Below are positions 29,623 to 62,863 of a DNA stretch of 64,000 nucleotides, one piece after another. A model generated the notes under the pieces. It worked only from the letters and a program-made list of their open reading frames with translations. It searched no databases and was not told the origin of the DNA. The number at the start of each line of letters is the position of its first letter. The stretch's first letter is position 1. Both the position numbers and the translations under genes were made by a program. The DNA is from a bacterium (GTDB lineage: Bacteria > CAYTYR01 > UBA6262), in the NCBI GenBank assembly GCA_028712895.1, contig JAQTPL010000002.1, positions 5,303 through 69,302 of the forward strand, read 5' to 3'.

Positions 29623-29698
29623 TGGCGCGCCTGCTGGGACTTGAACCCGGACATCTAGCTCCGGAGGCTAGCGCTCTATCCAATTGAGCTACAGGCGC
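29623..29698 (-). tRNA. tRNA-Arg(CCG), CCA encoded
   Basis: Acceptor GCGCCTG/CAGGCGC, anticodon loop CTCCGGA, T-loop TTCAAGT. Confidence 0.8.
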
Positions 29699-45827: not shown

Positions 45828-46101
45828 TTTATCCTCCTCGATCTTAAAATGTTCAACGCAAATTATTGGGGTCCCAGTCTGGGTTAAAGATAGAACTTTT
45901 AGGATAAAAGCTTCCCTACCGCTTTGAATCTATCAAATAGCCTTAAAGCGTCCCCTCAAAAGATTGCTTAATCAAAGCAAAAACATCCTTAATATCTGTA
46001 ATTCGAAAGCACAAATTGGTTAAAAGCAATATTTTAACTCTTTCGGCATATCTATAATTATACCTAATTAAAGAACTTCAAAATGATTCTTTATAGCTTA
46101 C

Positions 46102-47064
46102 TCAAAATAGAGACAAATAATTCACCGTGCTTTTTTCTGCATTTAAAATATGCTTAATATCTTTTTTTAGCTTTTCTTCCCAATTATTATCCCCCTTAAT
46201 AATAAAATATTGCCCTCCCAAATCCGAAAGACCCTTGATATCTCCTTCGTAACTATTTAGTAAATGTATTGTTGGTATATTATGTGAATGAGCAATCCCA
46301 GTTTCATACGCAACATTAGGACGTAATTCACCTTCACTAAAATCAGAAATCACAAAATCTACATCAATAATTTTATTCATAATAGATTGCATTAAGCCGG
46401 GGTAAGTCACAATGGAAGTTGAATCTATTATTTCATTTATTTTGATACCATTAGCATCTAATATCTTTTTTATATCGTTAATTCTCGATTGGGAATCTAA
46501 ATCTATTCTATGCAAAACAAAACAACTTAATCCTAAATCTTCCTCTTCTAATATTTCTAATTCTCCATCAGTAAAATCATAGGCATATAAGCCATAATTA
46601 CCCCTTAATAAAGCATTTCTTAAAAGCATATTTTCAAAGATTATTTCACCATCGCATTTTAATTCTTTTATTTTATTCGACTTAAATACAATTTCAAATT
46701 TATAACCTTTTCCAGCTTGAATACGATCCGATAAACCTATGGAGCTTACGCTATAAATATATTTATTTTTAACCTCAAAAAAACTAACATAACTCTTCCA
46801 TCCACCAAGGCCTATACCATAACAATCACCCCCAGGATTTTTTCTTATAGTCATCGCAATATGCGAGCCTTTTGGATCTGAATCATTAATCTTAATTCTA
46901 AATATTATTTTTAAATTTCGGGCTAACTTATCTCTATGTGGCCCATCCAGTAAATCAGAGAAATGGAATCCATCTCCTTCTTTACGTTCCTTTGCTTTAT
47001 AACCTTTATCAACTTTATGGATAAATATATTATCTGAGCTTGTCCAATAATTACTCACAAGCAT
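46102..47064 (-). CDS. Two-domain protein: unknown N-terminal domain plus a C-terminal nucleoside-2-deoxyribosyltransferase-like / TIR-like (SLOG-type) domain
   Basis: The C-terminal segment VDFVISDFSEGELRPNVAYETGIAHSHNIPTIHLL matches the A-D-x-x-I-A-D-(5-8)-R-P-N-V-x-Y-E-x-G-x-A-x-x-x-x-K-P-x-I-x-L hallmark of NDT-like/TIR-like flavodoxin-fold domains. The N-terminal 190 aa is beta-rich and unassigned. Confidence 0.5.
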   Translation of the reverse strand: MLVSNYWTSSDNIFIHKVDKGYKAKERKEGDGFHFSDLLDGPHRDKLARNLKIIFRIKINDSDPKGSHIAMTIRKNPGGDCYGIGLGGWKSYVSFFEVKNKYIYSVSSIGLSDRIQAGKGYKFEIVFKSNKIKELKCDGEIIFENMLLRNALLRGNYGLYAYDFTDGELEILEEEDLGLSCFVLHRIDLDSQSRINDIKKILDANGIKINEIIDSTSIVTYPGLMQSIMNKIIDVDFVISDFSEGELRPNVAYETGIAHSHNIPTIHLLNSYEGDIKGLSDLGGQYFIIKGDNNWEEKLKKDIKHILNAEKSTVNYLSLF

Positions 47065-47106
47065 CTCCTTGAATTCTAATTTTAATACTTGCTCAATTTT
47101 TTTATA

Positions 47107-49743
47107 TCACACTTCTAATTTTTCCTTAAACTTATCTGTAAACTCCTGTTTCTTCAAAACCTCGTTATAAAAAGGCAAGCCTACGAGCTTGTATCTATCA
47201 GATTCAAATAAATCAATAATCTCGAAATGGATTTCTATTTCCTTAAGAAAAATTTCTTTCCATTGATCATGTACGATATAAGGCTGGCCTTTTGCCTCAA
47301 CGAATAACTGAAAGGACAATGCTTTCTTTGTGTCTTTTTCGGTTAGGAATAAAACAAAATCCGGCTCAATAGCCTTCCCATCAGAGAACCGGTATATTTT
47401 GAATATTCGCTCATTCCGTAGAAGATAAATATCCGTGTATTTCTTTTTAAGCTCATCCACTGCCTGCCGGACAAACTGAATAAAATACTTCTCCTCAGAA
47501 GTGCCATAATTCTCATCATACATATACCAGTCGTAATCTTTAAGGTGCAACCGTAAGTCGTCTTTTGTCGTTTCGCTCATGGCGATACCAAACTCTTTAT
47601 CATCGCCACCGATTAAAACATCACCTGTCTTTGATGGCTCAACTATCTTGCAAATGTTATAGCCCTTAAATTCTTTTGTCCCAATATATTCTGTTGTGCT
47701 TAACTCAATCTTAGTTGCTAATTCCTTAAAAACATCCAAAGCGACTTCATACTTATCGTGATTGCTGAGATTATCAATCTGGTCTTTTAAGCCATAAATC
47801 TCAATATCAACTTCGCCAAGATAATCATCTGAAGTTAAAAACTCATCCACTGATTTTAAAGAAGGGAAAAACTGCTTTAGATTAACAAACCGATAAAATT
47901 CAACCTTATCCAGAGCTTTTCTGTTTATATGCTTCTCAATCCGGTTAAACTTAATCGTCCGTTTATCTAAATCTTGATCCTGCCCGCCGTTTGCCTTTGC
48001 CTCATCAAAAACGCCTATTTCAGTCGTTTTACCGATTCTGAGCTTGTGCTTAAAAATAGTCTCCGAAATAAGATCTCGCATTCGCTTAACTTTTTCCAAG
48101 CTGTTTCTCTTCTGTTCGTTTACGAAAAGAAGCCCATTCTTCCAAAACCTTGTTTATTTAATACTGTCTTTGACAGAAACAGTTATTTGTCTCCGTCTGT
48201 CATCCGGGGGAGTAATGCCACTTTTGACTAACTCTGCTTTTATTTCAGCAATATAGCGGGAATCGTTAAGGCTATGATAATGAAGCTCCTCTAAAACTCT
48301 TAATTCACTGTTTATATCCTCATCATATTTGCGTTTAAACCTGTCTTGACCTTCCTCAATGACAAAAGGATAATACCTCGCACCACGCCCAATAAGCTGT
48401 GCCTCTGATACGGTAGTTTTCCCGGCTTTACCGTGCTTTGTATCTCGTGTTTCGTAAAGCCTTACAATATCATAAAGATTAAGGACATCCCACCCCTCAT
48501 TGAGCATATTTACAGTAAAAATAACCCGGGCTTCATTATGCTCAGCCTCAAGGGTGTTTACCTTAATCTGTTTTTCTTCACTGTCCGCCTTTGAATTAAC
48601 CGCAATACACTTTTCCTCTGAGAAATCGGCTTTAATTTCCCGGACTAAATTATCATAGGTTATGCTGTTATCCTTAAAGAAGGTAAACGCCTTTGTAATG
48701 ATACCATTTGAATTACTTCGCTCAACCTTCTTAATATCGCTTACCTTGAGCCGTTTAATCATCTCTTTAAAATCTTTCTCGGCTTCTTCTGACTGATGAA
48801 TAGTCTTTTGAGCTTTGATCAAGATGACAGGTTTAAGCTGGATTTTATTTTTTTCGGCAACTTTACGCCTATACTGGCTCAATATAACTGCCTGCAAAAC
48901 CCTTTCCATAAGGGCAAGGTCGGACTGTATGATCTGAACATCTTTGGAAAACTTATCTTCCCGAAATTCCTTGAGCGTGTATTGATAAATGATCTTATCT
49001 TCATACTTTGCTCGGATAGCCCGATCCTCAAGGTCAATTGTTGCCGTGTATTCCAGCATGATATTTCTGCTATCACTCTGAAACGTCTTATTGATGGTAT
49101 TTTCCCAGCTTGTGCTTTCTTCAAGTTCTTCTTTGGACATCTTCGCAATGTTTTTAGTCAAAGCGTTTATATGATGCGCTTCGTCTGAGAGAAAAACTAT
49201 TTTCCTATTCTTGAAATCTTCCAACGTGATCGCATTCTCCTGCGGAGTCCATATTCTGGAATGAAGCCCTTGAATAGTCGTGAACAGGATATTGATATTG
49301 TCCTTACTAACACCTTCAAAGTTATCAACCTCTTGAATATGCACCTCTTTGTCATTAAAGACAACCTTTTCCGAAAAGAGATACTTAGGAGAGGCTTTAT
49401 CAAGAAAGTTTGCTTTTGTCTTTTCTATAATGGTCGTGCTGTTAACAAAGAATATGAAATTCCGGTATCCTAACTTGTAAAGGTAAAGGATATTCGACGC
49501 CATCAGAAATGTTTTCCCGCTTCCGGTCGCCATATTAAAAAGCAGGTGAGTGGGAAGCGTCTTATCTGGGTAATCGGTCAAATAGTAAAGAAGCCGGGCA
49601 ATAGCTTCTTGTTGATATTCTCTGATCGAAAATCGTTGGTTAAGATTTTTAACAATATAGCCTGGTAGAGCTTTATATTGTTTGAGAAACCCTAACTGCG
49701 ATACCGAATTTAATTTTTCAACTAATGTCTGACCGTTTGTCAT
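47107..49743 (-). pseudogene. res: Type III restriction endonuclease Res subunit interrupted by one in-frame TAA (48154-48156)
   Basis: The upstream ORF 48154-49743 carries the helicase motifs (ATGSGKTF, SDEAHH). The downstream ORF 47107-48099 carries a PD-(D/E)xK-like motif (EPDFVLFL ... FVEAKG). Both ORFs are in the same frame. Only 18 sense codons and one TAA separate them, giving 879 codons in total, which is typical full-length Res. Confidence 0.75.
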
Positions 49744-49745
49744 AT

Positions 49746-51761
49746 TTACACAACCGTTTTATAAAATTCTTTATTGAGCTTTCTATCGTCCGCATTAACC
49801 TTGTAAGTGGCGTCATCTATCTCGCTCAAATTAACATAGAGATGATTTTTGTCGAGGCACTCGAACAAGACCTGCTTCTGCTCCTTGAGAGTTAATTTCT
49901 CAAATTCTTTTTCCTCAAAATTAGAAAGGTCAACATTATAACAAAAGAAGGCTTCCTTTTTCATCCTATCGTAGATATTTAAGAGCTTGCGAGTGGTGTC
50001 GGCTTCTTTTATTTCTGTCATGTATTGTTCGTTCCATTCTTTAAGCTCGGCATAGACAAAAGAACCGCCACCTTTCCAGTTAATAATCTTTGATACCCCA
50101 GTATCATCCCCCTTAATGACGTTATTTAGCCTAATAATAGAGTCATTTTCTTCATAATCCAACTGTTCTATGCCTATATACCTACGACCCATTTTATGCG
50201 CAACGGCACAAGTCGTTCCGCTTCCCAAGTGATAATCCAAAACTAAATCATCATTATTCGTCATAAGTTCTATGATCCTTTGAAGCAACCTTTCAGGTTT
50301 TTTACCGCTTTTAAATTTAACTCCACCTTCAATATCTAATCTACCCCAAGAAATATCTGTCCACATAGAACCTATTTCTTCTAATTTACTTACCTCATTA
50401 TTATTAGAAACTGCACTATCTGAAAACCAAACAACCAATGTTTTATTCCAAACATACTTAATGACGCTTTTATTTTTATTTCTCCCAGTTTTAGGAACAT
50501 ATTCGTAAGAAATTAGTTTATCCTTTTCGGGAACAATATTATTAATCTTAGTCAAGATAGATGTTTGTGCATTTGTCACCATGAATATTTTATTGAAGTA
50601 TTTCAAATATGCCTCATTATATGATAATCTGTGCTTTTTCATAACGTTGCTTACAGTATCAAATTTGAAATCACAATGTTTATATACTTTAATATTATCA
50701 ACCTCTTTAATTAATTTTTTAGAACCTATGTCCGTTAAAATTCTGGTATAATAAAAACCAATGTCATCCTGTTTGTGTTCTTCAATATGTTTTTCTATCG
50801 GAATTGAATTATACATGGGCTTGTATTCAAAATATGCCTTATCCTTACAGTAAAATAATATAAATTCATTATTTTTTTTCATTTTTAAATCCTCACCTCC
50901 GCCACTTGCACCGGAACTAACCTTAGACTTCACGGAAATTGTGTTAATAAAATTATTTCTTCCAAAAATTTCATCCATTAATACTTTTAAATAAGACTGC
51001 TCATTATCATCGCACTGAACAAAAATAGAGCCGTCTTCTTTTAATAACTCTCTTGCTATTTCGAGCCTATTTTTCATAAATACAAGCCAAGCAGAATGAT
51101 TAAATCTATCGTTATATTTAAAATCATCGTTTCCTGTATTATACGGGGGATCAATGTAAACAAGTTTTACTTGTCCTCTGAATTTCTGCTTCAAGCAGTG
51201 CAAGGCGAGAAGATTATTCCCTTTGATAATCAAGTTATCATTAGCGCTAAGCTCCGTGACTTTGTGCTTGCCCTTGCTATCATATTTCTTGAAATTCGTT
51301 AAGACTTTCGGCTCAATTAACCTATCTATTTCATCCGGAGAGAGCGTTTCATTGTAAAATATCTCATCCCGCTTTTGATCTTCCTTCTCCTGGCCACCTT
51401 CAAGCACACAATCCTTATATGCCCACGCCAAAACAACGTCGTCTCTTTCTTTCAAATAGTCACCGTTTGACATTAGACCGATCTTATTTTCAAAGCTGGT
51501 AAACGAGCCCGGGAGAAACTCTTTGTCATTAACAAATGCGATGAATTTATCCTTGTCAAAAACAAGAACCTTTTCTTTTTTAACGATCTTTTCAATGAAG
51601 AAATGCTCTTTTGCCTTATTATCAGAAAGAAGCAGTTCAATAAGAGGATGGTCGAGCTTGAGAGCCAATTCAGTGAGTTTATTTTTAAGCAGTTTTCCAT
51701 CAGCGAAGATGCGTTCGTCTTTCTGGAATAATTTCGTCAAATCAGTCATCAGATTTTGCAT
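49746..51761 (-). CDS. mod: Type III R-M DNA methyltransferase Mod subunit (N6-adenine, DPPY motif)
   Basis: VKLVYIDPPYNTGNDDFKYNDRF (motif IV DPPY) and a later FGGSGTT-like AdoMet motif (GSGTTCAVAHKMGRRYIGIE). The ATGA overlap with res gives the canonical mod-then-res order. Confidence 0.88.
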   Translation of the reverse strand: MQNLMTDLTKLFQKDERIFADGKLLKNKLTELALKLDHPLIELLLSDNKAKEHFFIEKIVKKEKVLVFDKDKFIAFVNDKEFLPGSFTSFENKIGLMSNGDYLKERDDVVLAWAYKDCVLEGGQEKEDQKRDEIFYNETLSPDEIDRLIEPKVLTNFKKYDSKGKHKVTELSANDNLIIKGNNLLALHCLKQKFRGQVKLVYIDPPYNTGNDDFKYNDRFNHSAWLVFMKNRLEIARELLKEDGSIFVQCDDNEQSYLKVLMDEIFGRNNFINTISVKSKVSSGASGGGEDLKMKKNNEFILFYCKDKAYFEYKPMYNSIPIEKHIEEHKQDDIGFYYTRILTDIGSKKLIKEVDNIKVYKHCDFKFDTVSNVMKKHRLSYNEAYLKYFNKIFMVTNAQTSILTKINNIVPEKDKLISYEYVPKTGRNKNKSVIKYVWNKTLVVWFSDSAVSNNNEVSKLEEIGSMWTDISWGRLDIEGGVKFKSGKKPERLLQRIIELMTNNDDLVLDYHLGSGTTCAVAHKMGRRYIGIEQLDYEENDSIIRLNNVIKGDDTGVSKIINWKGGGSFVYAELKEWNEQYMTEIKEADTTRKLLNIYDRMKKEAFFCYNVDLSNFEEKEFEKLTLKEQKQVLFECLDKNHLYVNLSEIDDATYKVNADDRKLNKEFYKTVV

Positions 51762-51907
51762 ATTATACCTTATCCTTTAAAGATTATCCAACTGTAATTA
51801 TTAAGCTCTATTGTGGCTTATTTTACAATAAAGAAATGTCAAAGGCAAGCTATTTCCCATTGAAACCTGAAGACATACAAAAATAATTGGAAAAACAAAG
51901 CCAATTA

Positions 51908-52840
51908 TTAAGGCTGGCCAGCCTGGTCCGGGCTGTTATCAGGAAGGAATTGGAGCTTTTTTAATGTAGCAAGGTTCTGGAATATTGACTTCTGAATGGA
52001 TTTCTCATACCGCATAACCTTCTCGGCGTTATCGCCAGCCGGGAGTGAGCATATCTTGATATTAACTTCCTCGGCAATTTTGTTTTTAAGCTTCTTCTGT
52101 TCAAGGTCATATATCTCCTTTTTATACCCTTTATTCTGCCTATCTAACTTCTGGACAAGCTCATCAGCAATATCTTTGTCCGTATAACCAGCTTTCTTTA
52201 ATATTGCCTTTACTTCTTCAAAAGGGAGCCCGCCATCTTCAAACCTCAAAGATTCATCTTCTGACATAGCCTTTTCTTTTATAGCTTCGGCAACCATAGT
52301 CAAATCTGCCTCAATATCGCTTTCCAATCCTTCGCCTGACCATGTAGGATTGTTAAAGTTGACAACACCTTTTTTAAGGGCTTTGATATAGGCATTATTC
52401 CAGTCGAAATACTCCTGTTGTTGCCTTATTTCTTCGTCAAGTTCGTCATTTGTCTTGTTTTCTCTCTTCCCCAGATCATCTTCCTTGTTGTAATAGTCAT
52501 AAATGACCATATCAAGGTATTTGCGAATGCTTCCGGTCTCAAAGCGTAGGACCCGGCGTAAACGCCAAAAGTCAACGGCGATCTTCTCAACCAGCAAATG
52601 CTCCAGCTGGCCGGAAGGACTAAGGCTCTGCGCGAGATTAGAAAGTAACTGCCGATATTCTTCCTCACTCTCTCTGCCATCACCGCTTGAGATAATCAAA
52701 TCTCGGGCAAATACGCCATGTTTAACGGCATTCTGGGAGACAATAACCTTCCCTTCATCCGTCACTGCCCCTGTTGACACTAAGGCATTCTTTTTATTTG
52801 CTTCAATCTGTTTTTTTGTCGTCATAATAACCCCCCTCAT
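51908..52840 (-). CDS. Hypothetical protein (element cargo)
   Basis: 310 aa ORF whose start overlaps the stop of 52837-53331 by 4 nt (translational coupling). No recognisable motif. Confidence 0.45.
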   Translation of the reverse strand: MRGVIMTTKKQIEANKKNALVSTGAVTDEGKVIVSQNAVKHGVFARDLIISSGDGRESEEEYRQLLSNLAQSLSPSGQLEHLLVEKIAVDFWRLRRVLRFETGSIRKYLDMVIYDYYNKEDDLGKRENKTNDELDEEIRQQQEYFDWNNAYIKALKKGVVNFNNPTWSGEGLESDIEADLTMVAEAIKEKAMSEDESLRFEDGGLPFEEVKAILKKAGYTDKDIADELVQKLDRQNKGYKKEIYDLEQKKLKNKIAEEVNIKICSLPAGDNAEKVMRYEKSIQKSIFQNLATLKKLQFLPDNSPDQAGQP

Positions 52841-53331
52841 TTGAATAGTTTATTTGCCATCTTTGGTGAAACACCCATTTTTAGAAACAATCTGTCAAAT
52901 TTGTGGCTTTCCTTTGAGCTTTCATAGGTAAGGTTATAACAATGCCTGCACCCGAAGTATTTACCTCTCCCTATATGAAGCGATCCGACCCGGTGACCAC
53001 ATACACACCCATTGACCATAATAGGACAGGTAAACCACCACCGGTGCCCCCCAAAATGGCAAGGTGTCCAGACAAGCCGTGTCTGATAGTCAAGCTCGGT
53101 CTTTTCGTTCGTATTCCTGTCAGTCTGGGTGTATTGGAAGCGGATATATTCGTCACCTTCCACCGTTGAGACCATAAAGCTAATACTGCCTGTCTTTTCA
53201 CCGTTGCGACTCCAGTTCATACCACCCGAGCGGACACCGCCGTCAAAGTAGTGATGTTTGTTAAGGAATTTCGCTGTGATTGTCTTACATTCCTCAATTG
53301 TCAATCTGCTTGAATATGACCATCTGCCCAT
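52837..53331 (-). CDS. Hypothetical Cys-rich (putative zinc-ribbon) protein (element cargo)
   Basis: 164 aa. C-terminal cluster CHFGGHRWWFTCPIMVNGCVCGH...CRHC. Coupled to the downstream 310 aa ORF. Confidence 0.45.
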   Translation of the reverse strand: MGRWSYSSRLTIEECKTITAKFLNKHHYFDGGVRSGGMNWSRNGEKTGSISFMVSTVEGDEYIRFQYTQTDRNTNEKTELDYQTRLVWTPCHFGGHRWWFTCPIMVNGCVCGHRVGSLHIGRGKYFGCRHCYNLTYESSKESHKFDRLFLKMGVSPKMANKLFK

Positions 53332-53385
53332 TGAAAATAATTTTTCTCCCTGGATTTTTCCTAAATCAATAAGGGAACATAACCC

Positions 53386-53742
53386 TTAAACAAGGCTGAC
53401 AACCGTTCCGTCAAATATATCAAGGGCCTGTTTGACTATCCCGGGAAGCAACCCCTTCTCAAGAAGCCGGCCAACAAGCTCTTTCTGTTTATCTACTGAA
53501 AGGTTATTCCAGCGCAATGAAAATGACTTTTCCATCCGTTCAAGCTCTGCCTTGTCTTGATCCGTTGCCGTGCTGTTCTCACCTTTCACAAGTTCTGACT
53601 GCGCGCCAATAGCCGAATAAAACGTAATAAGCTCTACTACCTCATCCGGCCTGTCGGCAATTGCACTGATTACCTGTAATGCTTCCTGCCTCCTGGCTTT
53701 TAATTTCCTTATACCATCCAATAAACTAAACATCTTCTTCAC
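53386..53742 (-). CDS. Hypothetical protein (element cargo)
   Basis: 118 aa ORF in the AT-rich element. No motif recognised. Confidence 0.4.
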   Translation of the reverse strand: MKKMFSLLDGIRKLKARRQEALQVISAIADRPDEVVELITFYSAIGAQSELVKGENSTATDQDKAELERMEKSFSLRWNNLSVDKQKELVGRLLEKGLLPGIVKQALDIFDGTVVSLV

Positions 53743-53951
53743 CCCTTACTTTATTTGAGACTTTAAGGCGTTTACGCTTAATCCCATATAAAACAAGCAC
53801 TTTTACTGCCTTAAAACCTGTCTTGAAACCGCCTTGAGTCTTTTAGACCATATCAAGGCGTCATAACCCATTGAAAACAAAGGGAAAACCACTATTTGGC
53901 TTAAAGTCTTAATTTTATTTCCACCTGATAAAAGAAACATTTTTGATACCC

Positions 53952-56429
53952 CTATATTTTGAACCTCTCGCATAGATCTTGAAACACCGTAACGTCCATG
54001 ATATAAACCCGTTTCTTTTCGCCGTCTATGCGTTTCTGCTCGGATATAATCTTTACCTTTTTAAGCCTGCGGGTGAGGACGTTCGTTCTCTGTATCCAGT
54101 CAAAATCCTCGTTCGCCTTGAAATAATCAAGCACCGCCTGAGCGTCAAATACCTTGATATTACCGTCCTCTTGAATAGCAGGAATCTCATCAATCATCAC
54201 CTTAACCACGTTAAGCAGTTTATAGGTCTCGTTCTGGGAAACACTATCAGACTGCTTCTCAGCAACGGACTTTTGGCTTAATACTTCCATTTTATCGGTT
54301 AGATTGGTATTTTCGCCCTGCGAGTCAATGACATTGGCAAGAAGAAACACCGGCTCCCAAATATCAAGCTCCCGGTTATTCAAATGACTCATACCCTGAA
54401 TAACGTCTCCCGGGGCATAATAGACTTCCGCAATCTGCCGGGCATAGGTAAGGGCAAACATATAAAGATCATCCCGAATGCTTCGCTGTAAGTCAATAAT
54501 CTCCCCCGTCTCTTTATACCGCTGGACGGTTTCGTCATCTTTCTTGCGTAATAGCGGAATACGGACAGTGCGATCTTGCAATACATCATCAATGTCGTTT
54601 ATCCCGGCAAACATCTTAGGCGAATAGGCACTGTATGACTTAACCACAAAACCGCCCTGACCAGTGCTTTCCGTCCGCTTCACAACGCCCGCTTTATTAA
54701 ACCCGGCATTAAGAACACTGATAAGCGAGCCATAAGTATCTTTATCCCGCTTACGAAGCTGTTCTACCTCATCAATAAACATTGTTATAAGGTTATTGGA
54801 AATATCCCGAAATATAACCGACTCCGTAGGATTGGTAATAAGCTCACCGTTAAAGGCAATACTTGCGAGTATTTCCATTAAAAGCGTCTTGCCCGATCCT
54901 TTCTCGGCGTTAAGCCACACATAAGGGTAATAGCGAAAAATCATAAAAAGGTATGTCCCCATAACCCATAGCGTGACAAAGCTCAAATACGCTTCATCCG
55001 GGAAGCAGATAAACCGCTTTATGTAGTTATAAACTTTTGAGTAAACCCCGGGAATGTCGACCGTGTAATTGTCCTCAATAAAGGTGCGTATACCCTTATA
55101 GGAAAAACGGGCAGTATCAACGGTCGTATGCTTTAGCATGATGCCTTCGCTTTCGGCGTCTTCAAAAGAGCATAACTGCTTATCAGAAGTCACAAGGCAG
55201 TGCGTATTTTTAATCGCCACCGCAAATGACATAATGCCTTCGTTAAAATCCTGTGCCGGATGAACGGTGCGTGAGCCTTCCTTATCCCGGAGTATTTCAA
55301 TCAAATCTTCTTTATTCAAGCGCTTTGCCTCTGTGTTTTTTGGCTCTTTGCGATAACTTTTAAGGACTTTCTCATAGCTCTTAAGATCATCATTCGTGAA
55401 GCTGAAATGATCTTTTATCGTATATTTAAGAATTGCGTCTGTCTGTGCCGGATTAAGCCCTGCTATTTCTTTAAGGATGGGGTCAAGCAGAGCAGGTATT
55501 TTCGACTTGTGCGTGTCTTTCGGGATTGCTTTTATCTTCTTCTCAAGCTCGGCAAGTTTGTCCTCTGAGAGGATCGGCTCTGCGGTGCCTGCCGGTGGAA
55601 TCTTAATATCAATACCGTATTTTTCTTTGGCCACTTTCAATGCTTGTGTAAATTTATCACCCCTTAGGCTACCTGGCATAGCTTCCCGGCAATCAATAAT
55701 CCCTTCCAATACGGCGATAAGAGATATTGCCCCGCCCCCCGAGTTGCAACGGAAACAGTGCCACACATTTTTATCAGGATGGACAACTAAATTACTATTA
55801 TTCGTTGAACCGTGAACAGGATGACCACATACATACTGGCTTCCGATCCGCTTCGTCTGGACACCAGTTTTATTCAACACTTCAACAACGCTTATATCGC
55901 CTGCCTCTGTTTCAACGTCTTTTTGCGGATAATCAAAAGTGATATATGCCAGAAGCTCGGAGTAAATCTGTTCTCGCGTTATTTCTGAAATATTAACATC
56001 ATTAACAACCTCATACATAACGCCAGTATCAGGATGAATACTACCCGGGGCAACCACCTGCGAACCGCTTGAAATAATTTCCCCATAATGCATATCGTCC
56101 TTTTTTAACACGATCTTCTTTGGGATATCTTTTGAAAGGTAATAATAATGAAACCCTTTGCGAGTCTTGACCGTGAGAGTATCCGGGAAACGCTCTTTTA
56201 TGACAGTGCTTATTACTTCTGTATCGGCATCAATAATGATAAGATTGCCATATCCACCAAGCACACCGTAATTACCACCTTGATCAATCCATGATTGAAT
56301 TTCGGCAAACGAATAAGGTTTATTCTGCCAGTCTGGTTCAAAGGGGATTTTTGAGCGGGCTTTCAGCTTCACGAATCCGAAGCTGTCTATTTGTAACTGC
56401 TTAGGTATTCTTTGCTTTACCATCTCCAT
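53952..56429 (-). CDS. Replication protein: N-terminal bifunctional primase-polymerase (Prim-Pol) domain, Zn-binding region, C-terminal P-loop helicase-like domain
   Basis: Prim-Pol motifs GNYGVLGGYGNLIIIDADTE. Zinc ligands CGHPVHG...HCFRCNSGG. Walker A NAEKGSGKTLLM and Walker B FIDEVEQ. Confidence 0.75.
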   Translation of the reverse strand: MEMVKQRIPKQLQIDSFGFVKLKARSKIPFEPDWQNKPYSFAEIQSWIDQGGNYGVLGGYGNLIIIDADTEVISTVIKERFPDTLTVKTRKGFHYYYLSKDIPKKIVLKKDDMHYGEIISSGSQVVAPGSIHPDTGVMYEVVNDVNISEITREQIYSELLAYITFDYPQKDVETEAGDISVVEVLNKTGVQTKRIGSQYVCGHPVHGSTNNSNLVVHPDKNVWHCFRCNSGGGAISLIAVLEGIIDCREAMPGSLRGDKFTQALKVAKEKYGIDIKIPPAGTAEPILSEDKLAELEKKIKAIPKDTHKSKIPALLDPILKEIAGLNPAQTDAILKYTIKDHFSFTNDDLKSYEKVLKSYRKEPKNTEAKRLNKEDLIEILRDKEGSRTVHPAQDFNEGIMSFAVAIKNTHCLVTSDKQLCSFEDAESEGIMLKHTTVDTARFSYKGIRTFIEDNYTVDIPGVYSKVYNYIKRFICFPDEAYLSFVTLWVMGTYLFMIFRYYPYVWLNAEKGSGKTLLMEILASIAFNGELITNPTESVIFRDISNNLITMFIDEVEQLRKRDKDTYGSLISVLNAGFNKAGVVKRTESTGQGGFVVKSYSAYSPKMFAGINDIDDVLQDRTVRIPLLRKKDDETVQRYKETGEIIDLQRSIRDDLYMFALTYARQIAEVYYAPGDVIQGMSHLNNRELDIWEPVFLLANVIDSQGENTNLTDKMEVLSQKSVAEKQSDSVSQNETYKLLNVVKVMIDEIPAIQEDGNIKVFDAQAVLDYFKANEDFDWIQRTNVLTRRLKKVKIISEQKRIDGEKKRVYIMDVTVFQDLCERFKI

Positions 56430-56449
56430 ATCAATAATTTCCTTTCTTA

Positions 56450-56737
56450 CTATGTATTAAAAACCATTGTCTTTAAATCTTGAATTGCATTTTTAAAAGC
56501 CGTTATATTCACAAGCCCGTCATTAAAAAATTCCTGTATAAGCTCTTTGCGGTCATCCCGGTCATCAAAGACAAAAACAAACTTGTTGCCATTTCTGCAT
56601 TTATCCCTTAGTTTCATGCCTTTTGATTTTAAGTATGCTGAAAGGTAAAGGTCACTTGTCCTGTATGTGCCCATTATTTGCACTGTCACTTTTGCAATCT
56701 CCATCCACCACCTGTTTTGATATAAAATCACGGGCAA
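56450..56737 (-). CDS. Hypothetical small protein (element)
   Basis: 95 aa ORF immediately upstream of the replication gene. Confidence 0.4.
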   Translation of the reverse strand: MPVILYQNRWWMEIAKVTVQIMGTYRTSDLYLSAYLKSKGMKLRDKCRNGNKFVFVFDDRDDRKELIQEFFNDGLVNITAFKNAIQDLKTMVFNT

Positions 56738-56835
56738 TGATCCTCGTCAGTATGCGAAGCCCAGTGTCTAATTCATTTGTATTATTATTACTAATCAAAA
56801 CTGTTTCGTTGCTAATAGTCATTACATTCATCTGT

Positions 56836-57081
56836 TTATTCCACGATTTTATAAATATCGTTAAACTCATTTATCTTTAAGTATTCCATCATTTTCTGTC
56901 TTAATTCTGGCGAAGGGTATCTATACCCACTCATAAGCTGGGACATATACCCGCTTGTAATGCCTATTCTATGGGCAAAGTTGTTTTGTGAAATATTTTT
57001 CAGTAGAAGGTATTTCTTAATCCTTGTAGATTTTAGCAAAGCTCTCATTTGTATTTCTCCTTTCTTGCTATTGTTATGCAA
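56836..57081 (-). CDS. XRE-family helix-turn-helix regulator (Cro/CI-like)
   Basis: NISQNNFAHRIGITSGYMSQLMSG is an HTH_3 motif. Divergent from the plus-strand XRE gene. Confidence 0.7.
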   Translation of the reverse strand: MHNNSKKGEIQMRALLKSTRIKKYLLLKNISQNNFAHRIGITSGYMSQLMSGYRYPSPELRQKMMEYLKINEFNDIYKIVE

Positions 57082-57196
57082 GTTAATTATATAACACTTT
57101 TTATATCATGTCAACTGTTTAGCAAAAATAATGCTTGCTAAAGTATAGCACTTATGATATTATGTTTTTACAGATACATAAAAAGGGGGACAGGTT

Positions 57197-57556
57197 ATGG
57201 CTAATGAATTTGGCGCTTACCTGAAGAAATTAAGAGAGGATAGGGAACTTACTCTTAGGGAAGTTGAGGCAAAGGCAAAGATTTCCAATGCCTATTTATC
57301 TCAATTAGAAAGGGGTGAAAAAGGAATACCTACAATCAAAGTCCTAAGCAGACTTGCAAAAGCATACGGCGTTCTTATAAACGAAATGATGGCAAAAGCC
57401 GAAAGTGCTTTTAAAGATGAAAAAATAGATATTACTGCTACTACTCCTAATGGTGAATTTGTTGCAAGAGGATATGATAAATTACCAGAAGATAAAAAGA
57501 TGGCTTTACAAAGTTATCTTCAACATCTCTTAAGTGAGGCGAAAAAACAAAAATGA
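57197..57556 (+). CDS. XRE-family helix-turn-helix regulator (ImmR-like)
   Basis: LREVEAKAKISNAYLSQLERGEK is an HTH_3 motif. GGGGG Shine-Dalgarno upstream. Overlaps the ImmA-like gene start (ATGA). Confidence 0.8.
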   Translation: MANEFGAYLKKLREDRELTLREVEAKAKISNAYLSQLERGEKGIPTIKVLSRLAKAYGVLINEMMAKAESAFKDEKIDITATTPNGEFVARGYDKLPEDKKMALQSYLQHLLSEAKKQK

Positions 57557-58512
57557 CCAAGACTTTTGACGATTATCTTGGAGCAAGACCTTCCCTGTAT
57601 GGAAGAAACCTACTTAAGCGATTAGGTAACCAAAAATATTATGTTAATGAATATGACGTAATAGATTTTCTCGGTTATGAAATAAAACCGCTTAACCCTG
57701 AAGAACATAAAGGGATTTTGGAGTATAAAGGCATAGGCGATATTTTTGATGACCTTTGCGCAATAACATTTTACCGTGACAATATCATGTTTATTTCTGA
57801 ATCTATGCCCCCTACAAGGAAAAGATACACTATTTTCCACGAAATTGGCCACGAAATAAATGAACATCATCCGAAGGGATTAGTTTCAATAGGCAAAAAC
57901 AGTGATATAGATACTACTTCATATAAGCTTGCCGAGAGAGATGCTTTTTTAGCAGGTGCGGAAGTAATGTTTCCGCTAAAAAACTTTATTAATGATTCAA
58001 CCAGTCTTTCTTTGCAGTTTTCTTCTATTGAAAGTATTGCCCAAAGATATTGCGGTTCTTTTGAAGCTACGGCGATAAGGTATACTCTTACCAATCAAAA
58101 TATTATGGCTATTGTAGTAGTAAAAGAGAACGATTTAATTGACAACATAGAGAAGTTCACAAATAATTCATCTCCTAATGAATATTTATTGCCTTTACAA
58201 ATACCATTTTCTCAAAAACCAAATCTATCACCTACGCCTATTGCACCCCTGAGGGTTCAATATTGCATTCGTTCTTATCTTTTCCCAAAATTCATAAAAT
58301 CCGGCATTGAAATCGGTGAAGATAACCTTATATATAAATCATGGAAATCAAATATTTCTTTAACCGGTGAAATCCCCGCTTCGGTATTTGGTTCTTCTGC
58401 TAAGTTCAACTATACAGCGGAATGCAGACCGATTAACGGCAGAGTCTTTGTTTTATTATCACTTCCTGACAATCAGTTAAAACTATTTAATGGAGTCTCA
58501 TTATGCGGGTAG
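57553..58512 (+). CDS. ImmA/IrrE-family zinc metallopeptidase
   Basis: HEIGHEINEHH (HEXXH). Typical partner of an XRE repressor in ICE and prophage switches. Confidence 0.8.
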   Translation: MTKTFDDYLGARPSLYGRNLLKRLGNQKYYVNEYDVIDFLGYEIKPLNPEEHKGILEYKGIGDIFDDLCAITFYRDNIMFISESMPPTRKRYTIFHEIGHEINEHHPKGLVSIGKNSDIDTTSYKLAERDAFLAGAEVMFPLKNFINDSTSLSLQFSSIESIAQRYCGSFEATAIRYTLTNQNIMAIVVVKENDLIDNIEKFTNNSSPNEYLLPLQIPFSQKPNLSPTPIAPLRVQYCIRSYLFPKFIKSGIEIGEDNLIYKSWKSNISLTGEIPASVFGSSAKFNYTAECRPINGRVFVLLSLPDNQLKLFNGVSLCG

Positions 58513-60071
58513 CTTTGTATGCCAGAGTATCATCGGAAAAACAGGCTGAAAAGGACTTATCACTGCCAGCCCAGTTAAAAGCTCTTAGGGAATATGCTCT
58601 AAAACGGCAGTGGACAATCGTTGAAGAATTTATTGATGAGGCTGAAAGTGCCCGGACAGCCGATCGCCCGGAATTTCAACGAATGATTACATCAGCTAAG
58701 CATAAAGACGCCCCCTTCAATGTGATCCTTGTTTGGAAATTGAACCGCTTTGCCCGCAACCGTGAAGATTCTATAATTTACAAATCGCTACTCCGTAAGC
58801 GTGGTATTCAGGTTATTTCAACAAATGAAAACATTGATGAAGGCCCAACCGGTAAGCTTCTTGAGGGCATTATTGAGTCTATTGATGAATTTTACTCAGC
58901 AAATCTTTCACAGGACACTATCCGGGGATTAAAAGAAAATGCTATGCGGGGCTTCTGGAATGGTGGAATCGCCCCCTTTGGATATGACTTTGACTTTGTA
59001 AAGGTAGGAAACAACACAAAGCGGAAACTTAAAATCAATAAAATAAGAGCTTCAATAGTAAAAAAGATATTTAGCTTATCACTTGAGGGTGTAGGGATAA
59101 AAGAAATTGCAAAAGCATTGAACCAGGAAGGCTTTAAACGTAAAAGCGGTCAACCGTGGACAAACTCAAGTATCAGTTATATCTTAAATAACCCTATTTA
59201 TACTGGGTGTCTATTCTGGGATGAAGGCAAACACAATCCAAAAGCCGGCAAGCCCGTGATTAAGGTGCCAAATACTCACCCGGCCATTATTTCTGAAGGA
59301 GATTTCAATGAAGCCAGAAAACAGATAAGCTCCCGGTCAAGAAAAGTCATTCATCCAAGGGCATTAGGATCAAGATATCTTCTAAGCGGTATTTTACGGT
59401 GCAAAAAGTGCGGGAGTGCCATGACGGCATGTAGTGCTAAGTCTGGGAAGTTCCATTATTATTTCTGCCAGACATACCTCAAAAAAGGCAGGGAATACTG
59501 TGACCAAAAGCTAATCCCTGTTAATAAAATTGAGCCTTTAATCATTCAGACCATTAACAAGAGAATACTCACAGAAGAAAATATCAGGAAACTGCTTTTA
59601 ATGCTAAACGCTGAATTGCGGAAATTTGACGTTGAATACAAAACAAAACTTGATCTTATTGATGAGGGGTTAGAGGATAAGTTAAAACGCAGAGCTAAGA
59701 TATTCGAGGGTATAGAAACAGGAGCTATTAATCTACAAGATATCGCCCCAAGATTGAAAGAGCTTAATACTGAAATTGCCGAATTAGAACAGCATAAGCA
59801 GGATATACTCGAAAGACATCAGAATGGCGATGGCTTAAATATAAGTGATGAGCAGTTAAAACCATATACGGATGACCTCATTGAAACACTGTCAAAAGGA
59901 GCAATATCGGAAAGAAAGAGCTTTATACGCTCGTTCGTCAAAAGAATTACCGTCAATTACCCGCAATTAGAGCTTGAATACACTTTTCCCCTACCTATAA
60001 AAGGAAAAGACAGAACATCTACAAGAGAAGTTCTGTCTTTGAGTCAGTTTGGGGTGGCTAACGGGATTTGA
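58503..60071 (+). CDS. Large serine recombinase (integrase)
   Basis: Resolvase catalytic N-terminus MRVALYARVSSEKQ...SLPAQ, recombinase domain, and Cys zinc-ribbon (CKKCGSAMTAC...YFCQ). The C-terminal 7 codons overlap tRNA-His. Confidence 0.9.
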   Translation: MRVALYARVSSEKQAEKDLSLPAQLKALREYALKRQWTIVEEFIDEAESARTADRPEFQRMITSAKHKDAPFNVILVWKLNRFARNREDSIIYKSLLRKRGIQVISTNENIDEGPTGKLLEGIIESIDEFYSANLSQDTIRGLKENAMRGFWNGGIAPFGYDFDFVKVGNNTKRKLKINKIRASIVKKIFSLSLEGVGIKEIAKALNQEGFKRKSGQPWTNSSISYILNNPIYTGCLFWDEGKHNPKAGKPVIKVPNTHPAIISEGDFNEARKQISSRSRKVIHPRALGSRYLLSGILRCKKCGSAMTACSAKSGKFHYYFCQTYLKKGREYCDQKLIPVNKIEPLIIQTINKRILTEENIRKLLLMLNAELRKFDVEYKTKLDLIDEGLEDKLKRRAKIFEGIETGAINLQDIAPRLKELNTEIAELEQHKQDILERHQNGDGLNISDEQLKPYTDDLIETLSKGAISERKSFIRSFVKRITVNYPQLELEYTFPLPIKGKDRTSTREVLSLSQFGVANGI

Positions 60072-60127
60072 ACCCGCGACCTCTAGTGCCACAGACTAGC
60101 GCTCTAACCAGCTGAGCTACAGCCACC
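60050..60127 (-). tRNA. tRNA-His(GTG) with G-1 and encoded CCA
   Basis: G-GTGGCTGTAGCTCAGCTGGTTAGAGCG-CTAGT-CTGTGGC-ACTAG...GGGTTCAAATCCCGTTAGCCACC-C-CCA. The extra 5' G is characteristic of tRNA-His. Confidence 0.85.
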
Positions 60128-60327
60128 ATATTAAGGAAAGTTATAAGTTTTGAATTTTGAGTTTTGAATTTAGGTAAAATTACCTTAACTCATAACTTAC
60201 CTGTCCCCGCGTCTTTGATTTGTCCTTTAAGACAAATCAGCAGGGGAAAACTTAACACTCAAAACTTAAAACTGTTTTTATATTTAAGCGTCCCTGGCGT
60301 GATTCGAACACGCGACCCTCTGCTTAG

Positions 60328-60963
60328 CTTACCGCACTGGATTACTCCAGCCACCGAATTACTGGTGTTGCAAGTCTGGACTATGTCTTCACCGTTTCAG
60401 GTGTGTGGCATATAGTCTCTGAGGACTCTCGCTTGATTTCCAAGTAGTCATTTGCCCATTTAATAAATTTAGTTTGATTATTAGTGGGCTTATCAAAGCG
60501 AATAGCTTTCGGATAATTTGAACTATTTGGTATATAAAGCACTTTCTCTTTATCAGGGCAATAGATTGCATAGTAATCAAAATCATCCTGTTTATAATGC
60601 TTTATATGGGTACCATTTTTATCTGCCCAACTAGTTCTAAACTTAACTTCTATTGTACCGTTTCTCTTTAAAGTGGCATATTTTACTTGTATTTTATAAG
60701 TACTACCATCATCCAAAACAACAACTATATCATACGGTTGGTGCTCAGACAGTGGTAAACAAGGAACATACCCTTTTAAAGTCAAATCGGCTATAACCTT
60801 GGCTACTCCAATATCCGCTTTGACTTTCGTGTGGTGCAATGCTCACTCCTTTCTTTTATGACGACCTGGACCCAGCGGTTGCCTGCAAATTGTCCTGATA
60901 TTTCATCAGGAGTTCCTTGCATATAGCCACATCCACTCTACCTGTTCTTTTCCAAGTAGAGGC
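60328..60963 (-). ncRNA. Group I self-splicing intron (636 nt) in the tRNA-Arg(UCU) anticodon loop, inserted between positions 34 and 35
   Basis: The 3' region reads ...UCAGAGACUAUAUGCCACACACCUGAAACGGUGAAGACAUAGUCCAG..., which contains R-like (CAGAGACUA), P8 hairpin (CACC-UGAAAC-GGUG) and S-like (AAGACAUAGUCC) elements. The last intron nucleotide is G and the last exon-1 nucleotide is U. P2-like hairpin CUCUAC...GUAGAG near the 5' end. Confidence 0.7.
60381..60839 (-). CDS. Intron-encoded ORF (152 aa), putative homing endonuclease (possibly PD-(D/E)xK-like)
   Basis: TTG start 6 nt after a perfect AAGGAG Shine-Dalgarno inside the intron. The stop codon UAG is the UAG of the P7 3' strand. The basic protein contains PYDIVVVLDDGSTYKIQVKY. 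Confidence 0.55.
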   Translation of the reverse strand: MHHTKVKADIGVAKVIADLTLKGYVPCLPLSEHQPYDIVVVLDDGSTYKIQVKYATLKRNGTIEVKFRTSWADKNGTHIKHYKQDDFDYYAIYCPDKEKVLYIPNSSNYPKAIRFDKPTNNQTKFIKWANDYLEIKRESSETICHTPETVKT

Positions 60964-61032
60964 TCCTATTTTGAAGGCAGATGCTCTATCCAGCTGAGCT
61001 ACAGGGACAAATATAATATTTTCAATTATATA

Positions 61033-61395
61033 TTACAGTAATTCTTTAATTTTAGCAAGGAGGGCTTCCGGCTCGAAAGGCTTAGTAATATAAGCATCTG
61101 CCCCCAAGTCCTGGCCAAGCTTCTTATCTTCTTCTACACCTTTGGCGGTCAAAACGATTATAGGAATTGCCTGATAGCGACCGTCAAATTTAAGCATTCT
61201 TAAGATCTGATAACCATTCATGGTGGGCAACATGATGTCCAGGATAATAAGATCGGGAGCTTCTTCCCGCGCCATGTTTAAGCCTTTTTGCCCATCCGTA
61301 GCGAAAATAACCGCATAGCCGTTTGCTTCCAGCCGGATCTTGAGCAAATTGACTATTTGCTGTTCATCTTCGATTATCAATATCTTCTTAGCCAT
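61033..61395 (-). CDS. Single-domain response regulator (CheY-like), paralog of 6186-6551
   Basis: MAKKILIIEDEQQIVNLLKIRLEANGY...LDIMLPTMNGY...TKPFEPEALLAKIKELL. Confidence 0.9.
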   Translation of the reverse strand: MAKKILIIEDEQQIVNLLKIRLEANGYAVIFATDGQKGLNMAREEAPDLIILDIMLPTMNGYQILRMLKFDGRYQAIPIIVLTAKGVEEDKKLGQDLGADAYITKPFEPEALLAKIKELL

Positions 61396-61455
61396 ACTAC
61401 CTCTATTTATAGCAGCTTCGCTGGAATGGATCTTTTACATGAGAGCGATAAAAAA

Positions 61456-61528
61456 TGCCTCGGGACGGAATCGAACCGCCGACGCCAGCCTTTTCAGGGC
61501 TGCGCTCTACCGACTGAGCTACCGAGGC
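61456..61528 (-). tRNA. tRNA-Phe(GAA)
   Basis: Acceptor GCCTCGG/CCGAGGC, anticodon loop CTGAAAA, T-loop TTCGATT. No CCA encoded. Confidence 0.8.
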
Positions 61529-61552
61529 ATGTAAATATACTGCAATATAGGA

Positions 61553-61882
61553 TTAATCTTTCTTGGCTTTCTTTTTCCTTACATCTTTTATTAAGTTTAA
61601 GCCTTTAATAATAGTGGTCACAATTCCTATTATCTTGACCATGGAAAAAGCAGCCGCCTTACCGGTTACTTGTTTTAGGTGATCAGAAGTTTCCTTGATA
61701 TTCTCCACAGCAACATCAATTTTCATAACTTCCGTGTTTATCTGCTGAGCCAGGGAATCAACACTTTGCAATGTGTTTTTCAACTGCTTAAGAACCTGCA
61801 CTAAATATACTAACAGGACCACTACGGCAACTGACAACACCGCAAACAAAACACTCTGGAAAAAGTAAATATTCATTCTCAA
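61553..61882 (-). CDS. Small membrane-anchored coiled-coil protein (DUF948-like)
   Basis: N-terminal TM helix then an amphipathic helical region. Lys-rich tail. Confidence 0.5.
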   Translation of the reverse strand: MRMNIYFFQSVLFAVLSVAVVVLLVYLVQVLKQLKNTLQSVDSLAQQINTEVMKIDVAVENIKETSDHLKQVTGKAAAFSMVKIIGIVTTIIKGLNLIKDVRKKKAKKD

Positions 61883-61914
61883 GCCCTCCTAGCGGTTCGA
61901 CAAGCTCACCATTT

Positions 61915-62124
61915 TCAACAGTGTGAGCAATGGCCGCTGGAACAGGAAGAACATTTACCGCTGCCGTTGCTGGCAGATCCTGTGCCGGCTCCCAGGCTCA
62001 CCCGGGAAATAAGTTTGGATAGTTCCTGAGACTTACATGTAGGGCATTCCGGTATATCGCTACTGTAAACTAATAGCTCAAATTGGTTTTTGCATTTTTT
62101 GCAGATATATTCGAAGATAGGCAC
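61915..62124 (-). CDS. FmdB-family zinc-ribbon protein
   Basis: MPIFEYICKKCKNQFE...CPTCKS matches the FmdB zinc-ribbon signature. Cys/Ser-rich C-terminal tail. Confidence 0.7.
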   Translation of the reverse strand: MPIFEYICKKCKNQFELLVYSSDIPECPTCKSQELSKLISRVSLGAGTGSASNGSGKCSSCSSGHCSHC

Positions 62125-62233
62125 TGTGTCGTTTCACTCCACCGTTCGTAGTTCGTGGTTCATGGTTAGTAGTAAAAGCTCTTTTTAATTTTTACGACGA
62201 ACCACTAATGATTAACCACCATCGGTATTAAAA

Positions 62234-62309
62234 CGGGGACGACGGGATTCGAACCCGCGATCTCTGCCTTGACAGGGCAGCGTGTTAAACCAGGCTACAC
62301 CACATCCCC
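62234..62309 (-). tRNA. tRNA-Asp(GTC)
   Basis: Acceptor GGGGATG/CGTCCCC (one G-U pair), anticodon loop CTGTCAA, T-loop TTCGAAT. Confidence 0.8.
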
Positions 62310-62406
62310 ATAGATACAGCTAAATGTAATTAGCTAGATGCTTAAAGTAACTACACATAAATGATTTTTAACTTTTAGCTTCCAGCATTCAGCTTTCAGC
62401 TAAAAA

Positions 62407-62482
62407 TGGTGGGCAGTATAGGATTTGAACCTATGACCTCCGCCTTGTAAAGGCGGCGCTCTCCCAGCTAAGCTAACTGCCC
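62407..62482 (-). tRNA. tRNA-Val(TAC), CCA encoded
   Basis: Acceptor GGGCAGT/ACTGCCC, anticodon loop TTTACAA, T-loop TTCAAAT. Confidence 0.8.
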
Positions 62483-62607
62483 GTCGCTTGAGCAAATACC
62501 GTTCGTCGTTAATCGTTCGTTGTTCGTCGTAAAAGCTTTTGTATTTACTACCAACTATCAACTCCGAGACCGATTTTATCGGTCGGACGATTAACGGCTT
62601 CTAAAAA

Positions 62608-62679
62608 TGCGGCCCCAAGGGGAATCGAACCCCTATCGCGTCCTTGAAAGGGACGTGTCCTAACCGTTAGACGATGGGG
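62608..62679 (-). tRNA. tRNA-Glu(TTC)
   Basis: Acceptor GGCCCCA/TGGGGCC, anticodon loop CTTTCAA, T-loop TTCGATT. Confidence 0.8.
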
Positions 62680-62790
62680 CCAGTTTTTAAAAAGCAACTT
62701 CAGTTAAAAGTTGGGAGTTTGTAGTTAGTAGTAAAAACTACAAACTATTGGCCCCCTAACCACTAACTCTTTTCTCTGAAAAGAGAAAAG

Positions 62791-62863
62791 TGAGCCGGGT
62801 GAGATTCGGACTCACGACACCTGCCTTAAAAGGGCAGTGCTCTACCAGCTGAGCTACCGGCCC
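62791..62863 (-). tRNA. tRNA-Lys(TTT)
   Basis: Acceptor GGGCCGG/CCGGCTC (one G-U pair), anticodon loop CTTTTAA, T-loop TCCGAAT. Confidence 0.8.

Follow-up and report, generated by a model that had tools for sequence, protein, structure and literature searches.

A predicted lectin-fold and N-glycosidase two-domain protein, plausibly a single-gene anti-phage module, at the edge of a low-GC bacterial island

The window analysed here is a stretch of 64,000 nucleotides from a bacterium of the GTDB lineage CAYTYR01; UBA6262 (GenBank assembly GCA_028712895.1, contig JAQTPL010000002.1, positions 5,303 to 69,302 of the forward strand), and the gene in question is an open reading frame (ORF) on its minus strand at 46102-47064, which follows the type III restriction gene res. 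Profile searches and structural models show that its product consists of two domains, an N-terminal concanavalin A (ConA)-like beta-sandwich of the CBM66/DUF1080 type and a C-terminal domain of the NDT/DNPH1/TIR-like N-glycosidase superfamily, and that it represents a rare, divergent branch within a large family of two-domain proteins of about 310 residues. The gene forms a module by itself and is no partner of res; a role as a single-gene anti-phage protein is plausible. The explanation favoured here, with a modest lean in its direction, is that of a self-contained sensor-effector, acting by abortive infection or nucleotide depletion, whose gene was acquired horizontally as island cargo. The ORF and its ribosome-binding sequence are as follows.

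46102-47064, minus strand: ORF of the two-domain protein, 320 codons from the ATG at 47064, with the stop codon at 46102-46104
47065-47070, minus strand: Shine-Dalgarno sequence AAGGAG, from reading of the sequence, directly abutting the ATG and separated by 6 nt from the GTG at 47058

A first-pass annotation, made by a model from the letters of the window, had noticed the ORF at 46102-47064, and its presence there was confirmed. By a composition estimate, the chance of 320 stop-free codons at 30% GC (guanine plus cytosine) is about 2e-14, and the longest open stretch obtained in 2000 shuffles was 125 codons; the ORF is therefore a gene, and chance origin is ruled out by these two results together with the existence of homologues. 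Since AAGGAG abuts the ATG but lies 6 nt before the GTG at 47058, the latter is the likely true start, giving a product of 318 residues; the identical protein in NCBI (MDD5258509.1, 318 residues, "hypothetical protein") agrees with this start. Both strings that had been quoted from the translation, YGIGLGGWKSYVSFFEV in the N-terminal half and DFVISDFSEGELRPNVAYETGIAHSHNIPTIHLL in the C-terminal half, were found in the protein. A KD19 scan detected no signal peptide or transmembrane segment in the window protein or in any of the eight subfamily members; hydrophobic segments are missing (maximum KD19 0.87 in the window protein and 0.87-1.22 across all eight), and the encoded protein is therefore soluble and cytoplasmic. 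On the same grounds, a secreted carbohydrate-binding module (CBM) protein was rejected. The domains and motifs are located as follows.

46534-47058, minus strand: ConA-like beta-sandwich of the CBM66/DUF1080 (PF06439) type, residues about 3-177, from AlphaFold2 (AF2), Foldseek and profile results; presumed ligand or trigger sensor
46798-46818, minus strand: glycine-rich loop GIGLGGW, residues 83-89, from alignments; the most conserved motif of the N-domain
46135-46533, minus strand: NDT/DNPH1/TIR-like alpha/beta domain at the C-terminus, residues about 178-310, from family profiles and the AF2 model; presumed N-glycosidase effector
46255-46359, minus strand: motif DFVISDFSEGELRPNVAYETGIAHSHNIPTIHLL, residues 236-270, forming strand, loop, catalytic helix and strand in the model
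46303-46305, minus strand: GAA codon of Glu254, predicted catalytic nucleophile or general base, invariant in 60 of 60 aligned members

The assignment of the C-terminal domain stands through family profiles and not through the single sequence. When the aligned family members were scanned, PF05014 (nucleoside 2-deoxyribosyltransferase, NDT) was matched by 48 of the 60 (best E 1.2e-7), the PADLOC model PDLC00733 "Effector TIR" by 51 (best E 5.5e-17) and PF10137 (Cap12/Pycsar TIR) by six, the window protein itself matching neither PDLC00733 nor PF10137. Searched against the PDB, the family profile of this domain reached rat Rcl/DNPH1 (E 4.3e-8), human DNPH1 (about 2e-5), Trypanosoma NDT (1.9e-4) and the CMP/hydroxymethyl-CMP hydrolase MilB (4e-3); matches to Cap12 and PycTIR were weak (E 0.03-0.04 with family profiles). 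In the comparison of the domain profile with the PDB, DFVISDFSEGELRPNVAYETGIAHSHNIPTIHLL is aligned to "ADVVVAEVTQPSLGVGYELGRAVALGKPILCLF" of DNPH1. The family motif superposes on DNPH1 "ADVVVAEVTQPSLGVGYELGRAVALGKP", with E254 on the catalytic Glu, and the strand-loop-helix pattern VIAD.T..N.NVYYE.G.A pairs with "VVAEVTQPSLGVGYELGRA", the invariant Glu falling again on the catalytic one. In the window protein E254 lies within AYETG, in the helix NVAYETGIAH, and its counterpart is the Glu of DNPH1 GYELG; along with G256 and D281, it is invariant in the 60-member alignment. The AF2 model obtained from that alignment (pLDDT 89.4, pTM 0.88) has five beta-alpha units in residues 180-308, in the order b-a-b-a-b-a-b-b-a, and Foldseek against BFVD retrieved a phage CMP/hydroxymethyl-CMP hydrolase (E 2.4e-7 over 139 columns). 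Profile and structure searches, which had been proposed as a check of this fold, thus returned the NDT superfamily, and the reading of an NDT-like or TIR-like C-terminal domain is borne out for about 135 residues by the PF05014, DNPH1 and PDLC00733 matches and the catalytic Glu. The accompanying label "SLOG-type" did not survive: no SLOG, LOG or DprA family surfaced when the protein and its relatives were searched against Pfam, PADLOC, NCBIfam and the PDB, and this identity was rejected. A gene for a C-domain-only NDT/TIR-like protein of 299 residues was also observed, in a metagenome-assembled genome of Flavobacteriales (L011, 6915-7814), directly upstream of a full two-domain member; it matches profile positions 171-294 with an E of 1.9e-27.

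The N-terminal half, which had been left unassigned over 190 residues, can now be described as a CBM66/DUF1080-type ConA-like beta-sandwich. It is an all-beta sandwich in both AF2 models, and Foldseek, which had also been suggested for this half, gave as top PDB match the CBM66 of Bacillus subtilis levanase (4azz; TM score 0.77, root-mean-square deviation 3.0, E 4.6e-9). Across models the CBM66 match has TM scores of 0.74-0.79 and a deviation of about 3 A, followed by galectins and thrombospondin C-terminal domains; the family profile run against PDB sequences reached the same 4azz with an E of 1.7e-12. Some relatives match PF06439 (DUF1080, 3-keto-disaccharide hydrolase) and DUF6250 (PF19763). 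CBM66 occurs appended to a secreted glycoside hydrolase and binds fructan ends. The module of levanase SacC and DUF1080 are the best fold and profile matches of the N-domain; however, the latter is cytoplasmic and is fused, through a linker of three residues, to an N-glycosidase-type domain rather than to a glycoside hydrolase. Its glycine-rich loop, in which G83, G85, G87, G88 and W89 are invariant within the subfamily and which reads AGIGG in the broad family, is specific to the two-domain family and is not found in the CBM66 alignment.

Two further matches were set aside, PapG_N (E 0.029, single-protein profile scan), which was discarded, and a beta-propeller lectin over the GGW repeat (0.15, single-sequence PDB search), which was taken as spurious. 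There are also giant proteins carrying 5-15 tandem matches to the N-domain profile (P0015, 3465 residues; P0048, 5397; P0025, 2825); in P0015 and P0025, the two that were scanned, the repeats are PF06439 3-keto-disaccharide-hydrolase/DUF1080 domains, with 10-15 tandem PF06439 copies in giant proteins. Relatives of the N-domain also include PF12248 "Methyltransf_FA" repeat proteins (P0044, P0086, P0125).

Word-indexed searches of 5.8 billion protein clusters returned about a dozen relatives of the window protein, with 32-44% identity. An exhaustive hidden Markov model search, in which a four-sequence profile was run against 1.84 billion representatives, yielded 2188 proteins at E<=1e-3, numerous ones among them being 300-325 residues long and matched across both halves; a third search, with the 60-sequence family profile, retrieved only seven proteins. 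When the subfamily of eight sequences was compared by hhalign with 28 proteins of the broad family, the two were joined at 99.9% (E 4.4e-33) over 280 columns that span both domains, and the window protein is therefore a divergent and rare branch of the two-domain family, a branch for which about 14 sequences were obtained. Locus searches in GTDB species genomes, run with sub-alignments of the 60-sequence alignment, gave at least 80 full-length broad-family loci among 592 hits confirmed by tblastn, in phyla that include Bacteroidota, Acidobacteriota, Chloroflexota, Proteobacteria, Planctomycetota, Bacillota and others. In the viral contigs of IMG/VR no subfamily member was found, and full-length members of the broad family number only about four. 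The database names of family members are all "hypothetical protein", and no account of a fusion between a ConA-like/DUF1080 and an NDT/TIR-like domain was found in the literature.

Gene neighbourhoods were compared in 88 loci with 580 neighbouring ORFs. No conserved partner gene was found among them, the largest neighbour cluster being common to five loci; thus, the gene is a self-contained, single-gene module. Members of the subfamily occur in nine independent contexts, listed here.

Context i, the window: after type III mod-res
Context ii, L090: embedded in the type I operon hsdM-?-?-hsdS-[X]-hsdR-YgjP with gaps of 6 nt, a serine recombinase lying close by
Context iii, L087: directly after a gene for Mrr_N and Mrr_cat
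Context iv, L003/L089: 30 nt after the gene of an Mrr_cat protein; an AbiJ/Abi_C gene lies close by
Context v, L088: beside GmrSD, SRA-HNH and a PD-DExK/NucC-like DUF6602 gene
Context vi, L100: between a fusion of N6_Mtase and specificity domains and HEPN AbiU2
Context vii, L086/L096/L098: after RmuC; in one genome a HigB/HTH pair has been inserted
Context viii, L001/L002: after a Y1 transposase
Context ix, L099: before the gene of a DUF4379 protein

Restriction genes of type I, III or IV, or Abi genes, stand beside the subfamily in six of the nine, and the restriction-modification (R-M) types differ from one context to another; this speaks for a passenger of defence islands and against a specific type III partner. 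The same data bear on the proposal that the protein serves the type III R-M system as a dedicated accessory, compensating for or modulating its truncated Res. That idea draws on the shared strand, on the gap of 42 nt and on the lack of a terminator-like or promoter-like site within it (a scan around the gene scored no better than shuffles), but among the relatives' loci examined linkage to type III mod or res occurs only in the window, the other neighbours being intact type I, Mrr and GmrSD genes, the methyltransferase-specificity fusion, RmuC, a transposase or housekeeping genes; moreover, the defect in res is a single TAA, which may be recent, an assembly error or a strain polymorphism. The neighbourhoods thus largely refute this reading, which is now very improbable, and with it the suggestion of the first-pass annotation that the gene replaces or modulates the broken res. 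Its alternative suggestion, a stand-alone defence gene, gains circumstantial support from the missing partner and from the restriction and Abi genes beside the subfamily.

Two observations were made within these loci. In L096 a HigB-like toxin/HTH_3 antitoxin pair (9217-9822) lies between rmuC and the homologue; because the pair is not present in the syntenic L098, the rmuC-[X] junction is suggested to be an insertion hotspot. In L090, where the homologue is part of a type I operon, hsdM and hsdS of this operon are separated by two genes (2601-3623 and 4363-5415) whose products of 340 and 350 residues have no Pfam or PADLOC match; they may be other embedded defence candidates.

In the favoured explanation, a component of the phage, or else an infection-specific small molecule or sugar-bearing ligand, would act as trigger by binding to the beta-sandwich, and this binding would favour the dimeric or oligomeric state that NDT and TIR enzymes require. 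The C-domain would then cut the N-glycosidic bond of NAD+ or of (deoxy)nucleotides, draining an essential metabolite and stopping phage replication, by abortive infection or nucleotide starvation. The protein would work independently of the adjoining type III R-M system, with which it shares the island and possibly a transcript.

Several results weigh against this explanation. The window protein alone matches no NDT or TIR family at E<=1 in Pfam, NCBIfam or PADLOC, so that the motif which had been called diagnostic is present but not diagnostic for a single sequence, and the same three collections gave no match to any defence model. The profile built from the subfamily reaches NDT at just E 0.17. 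At the position aligned with DNPH1 Asp69 the broad family has a nearly invariant Asp (D227 of P0041), but the window protein has Ser227 and the subfamily S, K or T; the residue that binds the 3'-OH of deoxyribose (DNPH1 Asp69, NDT Asp72) is thus missing here, and because of this replacement substrate or activity may be altered, or activity lost, in the subfamily. The nine subfamily contexts are a small, metagenomic sample, and three of them (RmuC, Y1 transposase, DUF4379) are not clearly defensive. Finally, the immediate (+/-1) neighbours of 60-odd broad-family loci, for which there is no matched control, are heterogeneous and mostly housekeeping, with few defence-like genes (AAA_21 or AriA/PtuA-like in 3 of 118, MADS in 2, type IIG in 1). 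Homologues lying consistently in housekeeping surroundings had been named as what would speak against a defence role: this is not the picture for the subfamily, with restriction or Abi genes in six of nine contexts, but it largely is for the broad family.

These broad-family neighbourhoods, overwhelmingly metabolic or housekeeping, are what an alternative in nucleotide salvage would expect. According to it, the protein is a housekeeping, DNPH1-like (deoxy)nucleotide N-hydrolase which clears non-canonical or surplus nucleotides, its lectin-like domain aiding substrate recognition or regulation, and the R-M neighbourhood reflects hitch-hiking on an island. The closest solved relatives, DNPH1 and MilB, are indeed metabolic N-hydrolases, and the at least 80 full-length loci extend across many phyla. 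However, a patchy distribution with no synteny is atypical for a core salvage enzyme, the subfamily adjoins restriction or Abi genes in two thirds of its contexts, the gene is on a low-GC mobile island and the best-scoring model of the C-domain is a CBASS-type "Effector TIR"; a salvage role is accordingly considered unlikely, with some weight left to it.

The identity of the solved relatives also admits another target for the same two domains. DNPH1, deposited as 5-hydroxymethyl-dUMP N-hydrolase, and MilB take hydroxymethylated pyrimidine nucleotides, the N-domain is of the carbohydrate-binding-module type, and modification-dependent restriction genes (Mrr, GmrSD, SRA-HNH) adjoin the subfamily in three of the nine contexts; the lectin-like domain might then read a sugar-decorated or hydroxymethylated base in hypermodified phage nucleotides or DNA, and the NDT-like domain cleave the base from its sugar. 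The family would then represent a single-protein immune enzyme not recognised before, and its action would amount to a "type IV restriction" exerted on the nucleotide pool or on base-sugar bonds and not on the DNA backbone. The idea is purely inferential and improbable; the DNPH1-type Asp is missing from the subfamily and other contexts hold type I or III R-M systems, which are aimed at unmodified DNA.

A further possibility is that the protein is an orphan effector of CBASS, Pycsar or Thoeris-type nucleotide signalling, whose beta-sandwich binds a signal, cyclic-nucleotide or ADPR-derived, that comes from an enzyme with its gene at another locus. The C-domain resembles the TIR effectors of CBASS and Pycsar (PDLC00733 in 51/60 and PF10137 in 6/60 members, with the weak Cap12 and PycTIR matches), and the effectors of such systems are sensor-plus-TIR fusions. 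On the other hand, the 88 loci share no conserved neighbour that could produce a signal, be it a cyclase, ThsB or another enzyme, the island of the window holds no signal-producing enzyme, and no ConA-like domain is known to serve as signal receptor in CBASS, Pycsar or Thoeris systems; the probability of this alternative is judged to be quite low. Membership of CBASS, Pycsar or Thoeris was rejected, as no linked CD-NTase, pyrimidine cyclase or ThsB is conserved in the 88 loci or present in the island.

Returning to the sensor-effector explanation, comparison with known proteins suggests, at the same modest level of confidence as for the function itself, that the window protein works like known sensor-N-glycosidase immune proteins. 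It belongs to none of the CBASS, Pycsar, Thoeris, retron and Swarozyc systems. DNPH1/Rcl and NDT enzymes (PF05014) share with the C-domain the profile matches (4e-8 and 2e-4), the catalytic Glu and the predicted five beta-alpha units, but they lack the N-terminal beta-sandwich of 175 residues; the window protein, unlike them, misses PF05014 when scanned alone, has Ser227 in place of Asp69, is island-borne and patchily distributed. The TIR-like NADase effectors Cap12, PycTIR and Swarozyc combine a sensor and a Glu-dependent N-glycosidase in one polypeptide, as is predicted here; the window protein differs from them in having no SAVED, CNB or DUF4062 domain and no cyclase partner, its putative sensor being of the ConA-like lectin fold. 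Swarozyc is itself a single protein, in which a TIR-like NADase (DUF4062) is joined to an auxiliary sensor that binds the phage portal (10.64898/2026.05.01.722283). The use of an NDT-superfamily domain as an anti-phage effector acting on the nucleotide pool, as proposed here, has counterparts in the NDT-like effector of retron Ec86 (Retron-Eco1), which depletes adenine derivatives (10.1101/2023.08.16.553469), and in ThsI, the effector of type VIII Thoeris, which has a CMP-hydrolase domain (10.64898/2025.12.03.692087). Both of these need partners, namely reverse transcriptase and msDNA or the TIR protein ThsB, and carry winged helix-turn-helix or tetratricopeptide repeat domains, whereas the window protein has no conserved partner and has a lectin-like domain.

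If the protein does protect against phages, a lectin-fold sensor would be added to the immune effectors built on Glu-dependent NDT/TIR N-glycosidases, and in the simplest format, a lone protein of 318 residues without a partner, and so one that is readily tested. It would also open a first way into the function of thousands of two-domain proteins, as yet uncharacterised, across many bacterial phyla, and whether the substrate is NAD+ or modified nucleotides matters for the question of how phage and self are discriminated at the level of metabolites. If the protein is not defensive, it would represent an unusual case of a cytoplasmic CBM-type domain in nucleotide metabolism.

The R-M genes that precede the ORF belong to its context and not to the module.

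47107-49743, minus strand: type III res, interrupted by one in-frame TAA at 48154-48156
49746-51761, minus strand: type III mod methyltransferase, intact

The statement that the ORF begins 42 nt after res on the same strand is correct, the res stop codon being at 47107-47109 and the distance running from there to the ATG. That res is broken is equally accurate: the damage is the single in-frame TAA, with no frameshift, which falls within ATTAAATAAACA of a gene otherwise of full length, and the two halves, in the same frame, match positions 23-503 and 568-859 of the 873-position PADLOC profile REase_III. The TAA could have arisen recently as a nonsense mutation, or it could reflect polymorphism between strains or an error of assembly, and because mod is intact the locus may act as an orphan methylase. 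Co-transcription of the ORF with mod-res is possible. Directly upstream of mod two ORFs for products of 310 and 164 residues, overlapping by 4 nt, occupy 51908-53331 on the minus strand; the former has no credible Pfam, NCBIfam or PADLOC match and the latter none in a Pfam scan, the only one to which it was subjected.

The surrounding DNA is of a different composition, with a GC content of 0.30 at the gene and 0.43-0.49 in the flanks. GC drops to 0.30-0.38 at about 45.9-52.5 kb and again at 56-60 kb, and the region 45900-60130 of the window looks like a mosaic, low-GC integrated island, of which the studied ORF is the terminal and lowest-GC gene, the last item of cargo. Other genes in this region are the following.

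53952-56429, minus strand: protein with PrimPol, DnaG Zn-ribbon and DUF3631 domains
57553-58512, plus strand: IrrE-type M78 peptidase
58503-60071, plus strand: large serine recombinase, whose 3' end abuts tRNA-His
60050-60126, minus strand: tRNA-His, abutting the serine recombinase

The recombinase and tRNA-His (58503-60126) are the probable far end of the island, and the ORF the near one. No convincing att-type direct repeats were found flanking it, which is not unexpected for serine recombinases. Just past the island six tRNA genes (His, Phe, Asp, Val, Glu and Lys) are clustered on the minus strand at 60050-62863, and a second tRNA cluster (Leu, Lys and Arg) is located at 29258-29698.

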